Below, one piece after another: positions 44,422-62,397 of a stretch of DNA of 64,000 bases. The position numbers and the translations under genes were made by a program. The notes below the pieces were generated by a model, which saw only the letters and a list, made by a program, of their open reading frames with translations, was not told the DNA's origin and did no database searches. This DNA comes from Candidatus Tayloriibacteriota bacterium (GTDB lineage: Bacteria; Patescibacteriota; Minisyncoccia; Phycocordibacterales; PALSA-1337), in NCBI GenBank assembly GCA_903893855.1, contig CAITNV010000054.1, positions 32,562 to 96,561 of the forward strand, in the 5' to 3' direction. Every line of letters begins with the position of its first letter. The first letter of the stretch is position 1.

Positions 44422-45084
44422 ATGGAAACAACGATATACAATCAAAAAGGAGAGTCAGCAGGAAAAATAAAGGTTCCTGAGAGCGTCTTCGGCGTAAACT
44501 GGAATGCTGACCTCGTACATCAGGTTATGACAGCTATGCTTGGAAACGAGCGAACACCTGTTGCTCATACTAAGACTCGAGGAGAAGTATCTGGAGGAGG
44601 TAAAAAACCTTGGCAGCAAAAGGGTACAGGACGTGCTCGACACGGATCTACTCGATCTCCTATTTGGGTAGGTGGAGGTATTGCACATGGTCCTCGAAAG
44701 GATAAGAATTATTCTCGAAAGATCAATCGAAAAGCTAGCACACAAGCTCTTTATGTAGTTCTTTCTCGAAAATTCCGAGATGGAGAGATTCTTTTTGTAG
44801 ATAACCTTACTTTTGCTACACCAAAGGCTAAGGATGCAAAGGCTGTTATCTCAAGCTTTTCTAAGATTAAGGGATTCGAAAAGCTTGCTACAAAGCCAAA
44901 GAATGCAGCTTTGTTTACCATCAACAATAAATACCCAGAATTAACTAAGAGTTTTGGTAACTTCGGAAACGTAGCTATTGAAGAGCTACGAAACATCAAC
45001 CCTCTTTCTATTCTTAATCACAAGTACATTATTATTACTGATCCAAAAGAGTCATTAATGGCACTTGAGGCGAAGAAGAAATAA
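44422..45084 (+). CDS. rplD: 50S ribosomal protein L4
   Basis: The motifs PWQQKGTGRARHGSTRSPIWVGGGIAHGP are present. Confidence 0.92.
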   Translation: METTIYNQKGESAGKIKVPESVFGVNWNADLVHQVMTAMLGNERTPVAHTKTRGEVSGGGKKPWQQKGTGRARHGSTRSPIWVGGGIAHGPRKDKNYSRKINRKASTQALYVVLSRKFRDGEILFVDNLTFATPKAKDAKAVISSFSKIKGFEKLATKPKNAALFTINNKYPELTKSFGNFGNVAIEELRNINPLSILNHKYIIITDPKESLMALEAKKK

Positions 45085-60153: not shown

Positions 60154-60762
60154 ATGAATACACATTTTAAACACGAACAAACACTCGTTGTTATTAAGCC
60201 TGATGGAATACAGAGGAGCCTTATTGGGGAAGTGATACAGCGCTATGAGCGAGTAGGTCTTAAGCTTGTTGCGATTAAAATGGTAGTTCCGACTGAAGAA
60301 TTTATAGAGAAGCACTATACGCTCGATCCAGAATGGAGAAGAATTACGGGTGAGAAGTCTATTAAAGGTTTTAAGGATAAAGGGCTTACGCCACCAACCG
60401 AAGATCCACTTGAATTAACTGGTTTGCTTCTTGGTAAACTTAAAAAATATATGACCAGCGGTCCTGTTATCGCTATGGTCTGGCAAGGTGCACATTCAGT
60501 CGCTATCGTGCGTAAGATTACTGGTGGAACTGAACCACTTACATCTCCTGTGGGCACGATACGAGGCGATTATGTACTCGATTCATATCAAATGTCTGAG
60601 TCTGATATTCGTTCAGTGCGCAATATTATTCATGCTTCCGGTTCAGTAGCTGAAGCAAAGAATGAGATCGTTCACTGGTTCACAAAAGATGAAATTATTG
60701 ACTATAAGATTGTGCAAGAACAGATTATGTACGATGTCAATCTCGACGGTATATTTGGCTAG
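60154..60762 (+). CDS. ndk: Nucleoside diphosphate kinase (long form with an internal insertion)
   Basis: The N-terminus is EQTLVVIKPDGIQRSLIGEVIQRYERVGLKLVAIK. A catalytic His context IIHASGS is present. The protein is 202 aa versus about 140 aa typical. Confidence 0.8.
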   Translation: MNTHFKHEQTLVVIKPDGIQRSLIGEVIQRYERVGLKLVAIKMVVPTEEFIEKHYTLDPEWRRITGEKSIKGFKDKGLTPPTEDPLELTGLLLGKLKKYMTSGPVIAMVWQGAHSVAIVRKITGGTEPLTSPVGTIRGDYVLDSYQMSESDIRSVRNIIHASGSVAEAKNEIVHWFTKDEIIDYKIVQEQIMYDVNLDGIFG

Positions 60763-60773
60763 AGTATAATTGA

Positions 60774-60950
60774 GTGGGTTATCGGAGTATTAACCCTATA
60801 AATTATATTTTGGGACTTCGAGAGCTACGGCTCAACTTGTGTCGCACCTTGGTGTTGACCATAGAAGACCCACCTGGATTAAAATCTAGGTTGCAATACT
60901 CAGATAACCCACCAAGAAAGTCTGCAGCTCTTAGAGTTTGCGGCTTTTTT
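60774..60950 (+). ncRNA. Candidate structured small RNA or leader. The 5' segment gtgggttatc (60774-60783) pairs with gataacccac (60903-60912), closing an about 139-nt domain, followed by a T-run at 60944-60950.
   Basis: A TATAAT-like -10 element lies at 60765-60770 just upstream. A separate extended -10 (tgcTACAAT, about 60990-61000) could serve the RNase J-like gene. The 65-aa track ORF here is probably not coding. Confidence 0.35.
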
Positions 60951-61011
60951 GTTTATCGGGATTTTATTTAATCTTTATCTTTTCATTATTTCGGTGTGCT
61001 ACAATAGCAGT

Positions 61012-62397
61012 ATGAATGATATTTTTAATGTAACCTTTTATTCAGGAATCGGCTCTGTAACAGGTGCGAATTTCCTTTTGGAAGTTGGGGGAGTTATGCC
61101 ATTGCGAATACTTGTTGATTGCGGTCTGACGCAAGGGGAGAAGACTGCTGAGGATGTGAATAGGGAACCATTTGGATACGATGTATCGAGTATCGACTAT
61201 CTTTTTATTACTCACGCTCACCTTGACCATGTCGGCCGAATTCCAAAGCTCGTTAAAGAAGGCTTTAAGGGTATTATTTACTCAACTGAACAGACCAAGG
61301 ACCTCGCACGCCTCATTCTCGAGGATGCAGTTGGTATTCTTGCTAAAGAAGCTCATCGAGACAATGTCACTCCACTCTATGATCTCGATGACGTGACTAA
61401 GAGCTTCCCGTTGTGGCAGACGATTCCATATCATGAGAAGAAGACGATTTCTCCTAATCTTTCGGTATTCCTAAAAGACGCAGGGCATATACTCGGTTCT
61501 TCAATGTTTGAATTTACTCATACTGATAGTAAGGGGGCTTCGAAGAAGATCGTATTTACTGGTGATCTTGGTAATACCCCGACACCGCTTCTTCGCGATA
61601 CTGAGCCGGTTACTGGGGCGGATTATCTCGTTATGGAAAGTGTATATGGAGACAGGAATCATGAGCCTAAGGATGAAAGAAGGAAGAAGTTGCAGGATAT
61701 TATCCTCGATACCATTAAGCGTAATGGCACCGTACTTATTCCTGCTTTCTCTCTCGAACGAACACAGGTACTACTCTATGAGCTTAATCGTATGATAGAG
61801 GGAGGGGAAATACCTTCAATACCGGTCTTCGTGGATTCACCGCTCGCTATCAAAGTGACCGATGTATACGAGAAGAGTACCGAACTTTTTAATGAAAAGG
61901 CTCAGCAAGAGATTAAGACAACAGGGGATATATTTAATTTCCCAAAACTTGAGTTCACCATCACTGCAGATGCATCAAAGGATATCGATCACGCTCGAGC
62001 ACCAAAGATTATCCTCGCAGGTTCAGGAATGTCTACTGGTGGACGAATGCTTCATCATGAAGTGATGTATTTAAGTGATCCTAAGAATACGATTATCTTC
62101 GTAGGCTATCAGGGTGTAGGGACTCTCGGACGAACCATTGCTGATGGGGCGAAGCATCTTACTATTGCCGGCGTACCTGTTGATATAAAAGCTAGTATCG
62201 AAGAGATCCTCGGATATTCTTCACATAAGGATTCAGATCATCTTGTAGAGTTTGTTGCGACGGCGCACGATACCCTTAAGAAGGTCTTCGTTGTTATGGG
62301 TGAGCCTAAAGCTTCGCTCTATTTAGCACAAAGACTCCGCGATGAGGTCGGAGTCAATGGTTTTTATCCCGAAAGAGGGAGGAAGTATGATCTCTAG
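61012..62397 (+). CDS. Beta-CASP family metallo-beta-lactamase-fold ribonuclease (RNase J-like)
   Basis: The MBL motif is HAHLDHVGRIP. Beta-CASP and RMMBL regions are present. The start was set at MNDIFNVTF; the track ORF starts at 60949. Confidence 0.8.
   Translation: MNDIFNVTFYSGIGSVTGANFLLEVGGVMPLRILVDCGLTQGEKTAEDVNREPFGYDVSSIDYLFITHAHLDHVGRIPKLVKEGFKGIIYSTEQTKDLARLILEDAVGILAKEAHRDNVTPLYDLDDVTKSFPLWQTIPYHEKKTISPNLSVFLKDAGHILGSSMFEFTHTDSKGASKKIVFTGDLGNTPTPLLRDTEPVTGADYLVMESVYGDRNHEPKDERRKKLQDIILDTIKRNGTVLIPAFSLERTQVLLYELNRMIEGGEIPSIPVFVDSPLAIKVTDVYEKSTELFNEKAQQEIKTTGDIFNFPKLEFTITADASKDIDHARAPKIILAGSGMSTGGRMLHHEVMYLSDPKNTIIFVGYQGVGTLGRTIADGAKHLTIAGVPVDIKASIEEILGYSSHKDSDHLVEFVATAHDTLKKVFVVMGEPKASLYLAQRLRDEVGVNGFYPERGRKYDL

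Follow-up and report, generated by a model that had tools for sequence, protein, structure and literature searches.

A conserved structured RNA of ultra-small Parcubacteria that is probably a divergent, short-armed 6S RNA

6S RNA, which has been described as present in almost all bacteria (PMC8998176), is a rod of about 160-200 nt in which the two ends of the molecule form a closing stem, followed by a large central bubble and an apical stem-loop (PMC8876501, PMC8414754). In 6S-1 RNA of Bacillus subtilis and in the 6S RNAs of lactic acid bacteria a hairpin lies opposite the 5′ strand of the bubble (PMC8876501, PMC8414754). No paper linking 6S RNA to Patescibacteria, the candidate phyla radiation, Saccharibacteria or Parcubacteria was found in the open-access literature that we searched. 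Here we analyze a structured RNA element encoded between ndk and a beta-CASP ribonuclease gene in a 64,000-nt stretch of DNA from Candidatus Tayloriibacteriota bacterium (contig CAITNV010000054.1, positions 32,562 to 96,561), referred to as the window. The locus almost certainly holds a conserved, structured small RNA (sRNA) gene that, judging from its sequence signals, would be transcribed independently, and by analogy its product is probably a divergent, short-armed, lineage-specific 6S-type (SsrS-like) RNA of Parcubacteria-group Patescibacteria. A sequence-only reading of the same DNA had suggested that the locus encodes a discrete, structured sRNA of about 175 nt whose ends pair in the manner of 6S RNA, and this proposal is supported by the fold and the covariation presented below.

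Some RNAs outside the canonical 6S family offer a further basis for comparison. Synteny, a TATAAT box and a terminator led to the recognition of non-canonical 6S candidates in Weissella (PMC8414754). Like the Parcubacteria RNA, they are missed by the general 6S model and need a covariance model of their own, but the Parcubacteria RNA has the canonical rod with a central bubble and the Weissella candidates do not. The Ms1 RNA of Actinobacteria is described as binding RNA polymerase and as taking the place of 6S RNA in a phylum where the latter was not found (PMC9130861). Ms1 is a 6S-related structured RNA, but it binds the core enzyme rather than the holoenzyme, and no sequence or model match between it and the Parcubacteria RNA was seen. 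With a length of about 300 nt, Ms1 is also much longer. The 6S-Flavo family (RF01685), which we take to be another lineage-specific 6S-like family missed by the general 6S model, gave no match to the element in our Rfam scans.

Modelling shows the window RNA folding into a rod composed of a closing stem, a large central bubble, an inner stem and an apical arm (Table 1). The decamer gtgggttatc at 60774-60783, earlier proposed to close a domain of about 139 nt, is indeed the exact reverse complement of 60903-60912, and the domain so closed spans 139 nt (60774-60912). A repeat finder extends the inverted repeat to 18 nt (60774-60791 with 60895-60912), with 94% complementarity, one mismatch and 103 nt between the arms. 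The minimum free energy (MFE) of 60771-60952 on the plus strand is -69.1 kcal/mol, compared with -42.1 ± 3.8 kcal/mol for 200 dinucleotide shuffles, of which none was as good (z = -7.1), and the reverse strand of the same region folds with z = -4.1. A second inverted repeat in the window joins 60765-60781 to 60791-60807 (17 nt, 82% complementary), and GGGUUA at the 5′ end of the RNA has an additional potential partner in UAACCC, where the bubble strand begins; this pairing could represent an alternative 5′ hairpin or a folding intermediate.

Homologues were collected in two sets of loci, cited here by L numbers where needed. The genome set consists of 80 species-level loci found via the ndk protein (69-79% identity), all in metagenome-assembled genomes of Patescibacteria, and those assemblies that are informatively named belong to Parcubacteria-group candidate phyla. 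The metagenome set, gathered separately and anchored on the downstream beta-CASP protein, also comprises 80 loci, all of Parcubacteria type. A search by nhmmer with the window element gave 11 same-strand matches just 3′ of ndk. A covariance model built from eight sequences (R1) finds the element on the plus strand in 56 of the 80 ndk-anchored loci, and a model built from 50 sequences (R2) adds L058, L015 and L022, which brings the count to 59 of 80; RNA-positive examples include Zambryskibacteria, Lloydbacteria, Taylorbacteria, Kaiserbacteria, Campbellbacteria, Paceibacterota and Minisyncoccia. In the metagenome set the element lies on the same strand as the beta-CASP gene, and upstream of it, in 65 of 80 loci. 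Ten of the 15 RNA-negative loci in that set have less than 500 nt of upstream sequence, and in L097, L098, L121, L124 and L158 the covariance models found no element despite 0.7-2.5 kb of upstream sequence. The RNA is conserved in more than 100 ultra-small Parcubacteria of the candidate phyla radiation. One copy occurs within the 64-kb window; 6S RNA, an abundant and stable transcript, commonly has one or two genes in a genome. A metagenome contig, L149, carries two tandem copies (1510-1695 and 1780-1981, scoring 42 and 109 bits with R2) which both retain GGGA...CCCACCU, an arrangement that recalls the 6S-1/6S-2 paralogues of Bacillus.

Covariation supports the modelled helices in two alignments made from the separately gathered locus sets, with compensatory changes at 22 of the 27 pairs in each. 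In the genome alignment (50 sequences) 93.6% of cells form standard pairs, as against 33-50% in controls with the 3′ partners shifted by 1-3 columns; its 22 pairs changed on both sides, and none of 500 shuffles reached any of the observed measures. In the metagenome alignment (53 sequences) 96.0% of cells pair, as against 34-45% when slid; this alignment shares no sequence with the model-building set, but it was aligned to that model and leans toward its structure. Re-alignment of the trimmed cores by MAFFT misaligned the 5′ end, and the model-based alignments were preferred. All 14 modelled closing-stem pairs show compensatory changes in both alignments. The GGG/CCC pairing of the inner stem is found in 50/50 genome-set sequences and, in the metagenome set, in 53/53 for two of the pairs and 52/53 for the third, and the four inner-stem pairs that follow this clamp all covary. 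For the hairpin on the 3′ strand of the bubble, six pairs were modelled; they are 93-96% paired and four have compensatory changes. Since G-U pairs are frequent and reverse-strand matches are much weaker (19 bits with the covariance model, compared with 126 bits on the plus strand), the strand of the RNA can be considered fixed.

The same parts recur throughout the family with some variation in size. The closing stem comprises 14-17 modelled pairs and is followed by a 5′ bubble strand of 19-25 nt (median 21) that is A/U-rich and whose length is held while its sequence varies among the 50 homologues. An invariant GGG-A with 3-4 covarying pairs then opens the inner stem, above which the apical domain measures 29-84 nt; an apical hairpin is present in the single-sequence folds of 100 members, with one hairpin in 58 and two in 35 of these, and CUUG is the commonest terminal loop. 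After the invariant CCC there is a hairpin of 13-20 nt opening with CCU(A/G)G and then a linker of 3-7 nt, and the family's sequence conservation is highest in the block CCCACCU(G/A)G. The structured core is 117-172 nt long, with a family median of 128 nt, the window core being 139 nt.

Signals expected of an autonomous transcription unit lie at both ends of the fold. The TATAAT pointed out earlier stands at 60765-60770, three bases past the ndk stop codon TAG (60760-60762), and it ends about 7 nt before the first closing-stem pair, a distance that is fixed in the 50-sequence alignment. In a promoter scan of the window the -35/-10 pair scores 10/12 matches, and a hexamer of TTGAC/TTGCA type occurs at equal distance in most homologues, both where it falls in ndk and where it falls in spacer DNA. 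From these signals, transcription is predicted to start at about 60776-60778, at the first pairs of the closing stem. At the other end, the T-run that had been placed at 60944-60950 exists, but it was located one base off, there being six T at 60945-60950 on the plus strand and a C at 60944. Directly 5′ of it the MFE fold contains an imperfect hairpin (60913-60944), which a simple terminator scan did not call because of the bulge in the hairpin; a hairpin with a U-run is found at the same place in homologues, with cleaner versions than that of the window copy. The 3′ end is predicted at the U-run, near 60950, and the predicted primary transcript is about 174 nt long (60777-60950).

Sequence comparison with 6S RNA yielded weak matches in the expected place. 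In permissive-threshold scans of short stretches, 6S (RF00013) was the only Rfam family matching the core in register, and its matches fall on the plus strand only (Table 1), so that the 6S likeness suggested by the sequence-only reading was borne out in position, although the scores are far below the gathering threshold of 46.4 bits. The printed E-values (0.7-7.5) include a factor of 4227 families, and for 6S alone, the family named beforehand, E is about 2e-4 to 2e-3. In these matches the invariant GGGA and CCCACCU(G/A)G, which form the two sides of the stem closing the bubble apically, align to the 6S consensus letters 'GGGag' and 'caCCCACCUgg', which occupy the corresponding structural position, and the CUUG apical loop aligns to 'CUUGuA'. 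Low-scoring matches to Thr_leader, rnk_pseudo, istR, OrzO-P and miRNA hairpins were treated as spurious, because all of them lie on the terminator hairpin and differ between homologues.

The resemblance extends to the architecture. Apart from its shorter arms, the Parcubacteria RNA as modelled corresponds to the published definition of 6S RNA. Both have a rod fold, a closing stem made by the ends of the molecule, an open 5′ bubble strand of about 20 nt, a G-C clamp at the apical side of the bubble bearing the GGGA / CCCACCUGG letters, and an apical stem-loop; both also have a TATAAT promoter of their own, a rho-independent terminator and fixed neighbours within a lineage. With 6S-1 and the RNAs of lactic acid bacteria the Parcubacteria RNA further shares a pre-formed hairpin on the 3′ strand of the bubble, opposite which the 5′ strand (19-25 nt) is open, being unpaired in the consensus. 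As regards length, the predicted transcript of about 174 nt compares with the 160-200 nt of 6S RNA, whereas the structured core of the window copy has only 139 nt. The apical arm is about half the usual 6S length and, unlike 6S RNA, the predicted transcript starts exactly at the closing stem and keeps the terminator hairpin as a 3′ tail. B. subtilis 6S-1 RNA cut down to the bubble and two short arms has been reported to complete the cycle of binding, product-RNA synthesis and release in vitro (PMC8876501). Since this truncated 6S-1 still works in vitro, short arms are no argument against function, and the Parcubacteria RNA, with its short arms and median core of 128 nt, may be a natural minimal 6S RNA, which would fit the in vitro activity of the truncated 6S-1 (PMC8876501).

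Table 1. Position and basis of the features of the RNA locus in the window, and of related features in homologous loci
Feature	Locus	Position	Strand	Description and basis
-35-like hexamer	window	60743-60748	+	TCGACG; within the last codons of ndk, 16 nt 5′ of the -10 box
-10 box	window	60765-60770	+	TATAAT; conserved as TAnAAT (50-sequence alignment)
Closing stem, 5′ strand	window	60774-60791	+	GUGGGUUAUC-G-GAGUAUU; inverted repeat and MFE fold
Central bubble, 5′ strand	window	60792-60811	+	Single-stranded, 20 nt, A/U-rich; unpaired in MFE, centroid and consensus folds
Inner stem, 5′ strand	window	60812-60819	+	Invariant GGG, then A, then CUUC
Apical domain	window	60820-60863	+	Side hairpin 60822-60833 and terminal hairpin with CUUG tetraloop 60848-60851; MFE fold
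Inner stem, 3′ strand	window	60864-60871	+	GAAG, then A, then invariant CCC; MFE fold, covariation
Hairpin on 3′ strand of bubble	window	60872-60891	+	A-CCUGGAUU-UAAA-AUCUAGG-U
Linker, hairpin to closing stem	window	60892-60894	+	UGC, unpaired; MFE fold
Closing stem, 3′ strand	window	60895-60912	+	AAUACUC-A-GAUAACCCAC; MFE fold, covariation, inverted repeat
Predicted intrinsic terminator	window	60913-60950	+	A-rich 5′ flank, imperfect G+C hairpin, U-run 60945-60950; MFE fold
Boundary feature, outside the RNA	window	60997-61014	+	Extended -10 TGcTACAAT (60997-61005) and ATG (61012) of beta-CASP gene
beta-CASP ribonuclease gene	window	61012-62397	+	CPSF/aCPSF1 type, 461 aa
Membrane-protein gene, example	L041	3832-4272
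Membrane-protein gene, example	L056	3938-4369
Membrane-protein gene, example	L019	3879-4310
RF00013 match	window		+	14.2 bits, model 19-169, E 1.6
RF00013 match	L053		+	13.6 bits, model 19-169, E 0.71 (top of its list)
RF00013 match	L136		+	12.6 bits, model 41-146, E 1.4
RF00013 match	L054		+	9.5 bits, model 48-144, E 7.5

If the RNA works as a 6S RNA, its helix-bubble-helix shape would imitate an open promoter, by analogy with E. coli 6S and B. subtilis 6S-1 RNA, and it would occupy the active-site cleft of RNA polymerase carrying the housekeeping sigma (sigma-A/sigma-70) factor, which would damp transcription when nutrients or the host are limiting. On return of nucleoside triphosphates, the polymerase would copy the 5′ bubble strand, the presumed template (60792-60811), and the closing-stem strand next to it, which would yield a short product RNA (from about 60785-60799), and the synthesis of this product would unzip the stem, refold the RNA and free the enzyme. 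Polymerase binding and product-RNA templating are what we infer for the Parcubacteria RNA by this analogy. If synthesis began opposite U60799, the product would read 5′-AUAGGGUUAAUAC, carrying GG at positions 4/5, and the template would have an A just 3′ of the start site; GG at 4/5 and an A beside the start have been reported for known product RNAs (PMC8414754), and these features may be taken as a weak hint for a 6S mechanism.

Another possible trace of a switch concerns the 'central bubble collapse helix' that has been described for B. subtilis 6S-1 RNA (PMC8876501). Sixteen of 50 members show strong complementarity between the far end of their 5′ bubble strand and the closing stem's 3′ strand, with a different sequence each time (examples are L040, L051, L052, L046, L049, L080, L011, L050, L028 and L003). 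The far bubble end in those members repeats the 5′ strand of the closing stem, so that the 3′ strand has two partners of up to 9 bp each, and such complementarity in about one third of the members suggests a possible conformational switch. Averaged over the 50 sequences the complementarity has z = -0.64. Because this mean is weak, and because the complementarity is strong in about 16 members and absent from the window copy, we retain the collapse helix as a hint only.

Parcubacteria have tiny genomes, few regulators and a host-dependent lifestyle. Should the 6S reading be true, a polymerase-sequestering RNA would be a plausible route of entry into and exit from dormancy, and possibly a global brake on transcription. 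There is also an annotation gap, in that the Rfam model fails to detect or annotate the 6S-like element in this lineage. The alignments and the R2 model could be used to annotate the RNA gene across Parcubacteria and to guide the mapping of groundwater metatranscriptome reads.

A number of observations weigh against the assignment to 6S. At the gathering level, the element was assigned to no Rfam family, either in 20 homologue loci or in the window, where the scan returned only four tRNAs, and the best 6S score among the tested members is 14.2 bits, compared with the 46.4 bits of the threshold; L062 gave no RF00013 match even at the permissive threshold. The weak matches are not mutually independent, because the sequences are homologous. 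A search of the E. coli ssrS locus with R1, filters off, gave no match at ssrS, which says little because 6S subfamilies rarely cross-detect. The Parcubacteria core (117-172 nt, median 128 nt) is shorter than canonical 6S RNA (160-200 nt), the window copy shows no collapse-helix complementarity (z = +0.45), and the very tight linkage to the beta-CASP gene could mean a nuclease-related role. Because the RF00013 scores amount to only 9.5-14 bits, membership of the 6S family should be regarded as inferred rather than proven.

Alternative explanations for the locus differ greatly in how probable they are. That the region encodes a 65-aa protein, with the pairing incidental, has a negligible chance of being right. 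The window does contain an open 65-codon frame with a GTG start (60774-60971), whose conservation as protein the sequence-only reading had named as an argument against an RNA, but the frame lacks conservation: in L009, the closest homologue, each of the three frames is interrupted by 2-5 stops, and the longest open stretch over 57 homologues has a median of 40 codons. A tblastn search with the 65-aa peptide gave one weak match only (L009, 35% identity, E = 0.001), Pfam gave none, the indels among homologues are not multiples of three, and the substitutions keep base pairs rather than codons. The protein reading is refuted by the stops in homologues. It is very improbable, too, that the RNA is a cis-acting 5′ leader, attenuator or riboswitch which controls the downstream membrane-protein and beta-CASP genes through the terminator, even though it is always upstream of those genes on the same strand with the terminator in between, and the next open reading frame starts 2-50 nt past the U-run in many loci. 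The downstream genes typically have a TATAAT-like -10 box of their own, placed 6-8 nt ahead of the ATG, and lack a Shine-Dalgarno motif, so that their mRNAs would begin at the start codon, and because of this box the RNA is not their 5′ untranslated region. Moreover, the first downstream gene varies (membrane protein, beta-CASP, lysozyme-like or large surface protein), the closing stem of 17-18 bp is far too stable for a riboswitch P1, the conserved nucleotides lie in helices and one hairpin and not in a junction fit for a ligand pocket, and a by-eye, non-systematic reading of the window copy shows only about 4 bp of possible anti-terminator pairing. With a conserved promoter and terminator of its own, the RNA does not behave as the leader that the sequence-only reading had offered as an option.

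A more serious competitor, although still an unlikely one, is a structured RNA of a new class, unrelated to 6S and tied to the CPSF-like beta-CASP ribonuclease, perhaps as a preferred substrate, decoy or inhibitor, or partner. The far sub-threshold Rfam 6S scores agree with it, as does the gene linkage, which is tighter to beta-CASP than to ndk: 65 of 80 loci have the RNA 5′ of a co-oriented beta-CASP gene, most exceptions having short upstream sequence, and 17 ndk loci with at least 1 kb of downstream sequence have neither an RNA match nor a beta-CASP gene, on which ground the two appear to have been lost together. These 17 loci are L024, L025, L042, L076 and 13 others, and all four full-length Moranbacteria-labelled loci are among them. 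However, fixed gene order is common without any functional tie, and canonical 6S genes are likewise found beside constant neighbours, for instance rarA/uspA in the case of lactic acid bacteria (PMC8414754) and fau in that of E. coli ssrS. In most loci an unrelated gene for a membrane protein of about 140 aa stands between the RNA and beta-CASP, three loci (L002, L015 and L046) have the RNA with no beta-CASP gene downstream, and in eight that contain both the RNA and beta-CASP the 1.7-1.9 kb upstream include no ndk, so that neither neighbour is obligatory. A new class would also leave unexplained why the RNA agrees in such detail with 6S anatomy and with the GGGA/CCCACCUGG consensus. In B. subtilis, the 6S-1 and 6S-2 RNAs are both matured and degraded by RNase J1 (PMC10578484), which makes a functional tie between a 6S-type RNA and the neighbouring beta-CASP nuclease conceivable. 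The specific proposal that a non-6S RNA works with the beta-CASP protein, for instance as decoy, scaffold or regulator of what would be the principal RNA-decay enzyme in these reduced genomes, or in a milder form that a miniature 6S RNA has nuclease-coupled maturation or turnover, has a smaller chance still of being correct.

As for the surrounding genes, the downstream gene of the window had been described as RNase J-like. It encodes instead a beta-CASP ribonuclease of CPSF/aCPSF1 type, the RNase J family scoring 19 bits; among NCBIfam models, Cas14_MBL_CASP matches the protein best (399.8 bits, short of the 800-bit cutoff), with aCPSF1 next (292 bits). Most often the RNA is followed first by a gene for a multi-pass membrane protein (about 130-150 aa) and then by the beta-CASP gene (Table 1); the one such protein tested, from L056, had no NCBIfam match. 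The membrane-protein gene is missing from the window and about a dozen relatives, where the beta-CASP gene comes directly after the RNA, and the place is taken by a lysozyme-like protein gene in L009 and by that of a surface protein of more than 790 aa in L002. Elsewhere in the window, ARAGORN called a tRNA-SeC of 95 nt with anticodon TCA at 44925-45019 on the minus strand, which is probably a false positive because the Rfam gathering scan reports no tRNA there and the T-loop motif is lacking.

The extended -10 element (tgcTACAAT) attributed earlier to the downstream gene was found at 60997-61005, six bases before the ATG at 61012, and this spacing implies a leaderless beta-CASP mRNA with its own promoter. 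In a count over 94 loci, based on a naive start-codon call, the gene that follows the RNA has a TAnnnT box ending 4-10 nt ahead of its start in 58 loci and is preceded by a Shine-Dalgarno-like motif in only three, which suggests that leaderless mRNAs are the rule for these post-RNA genes in Parcubacteria.

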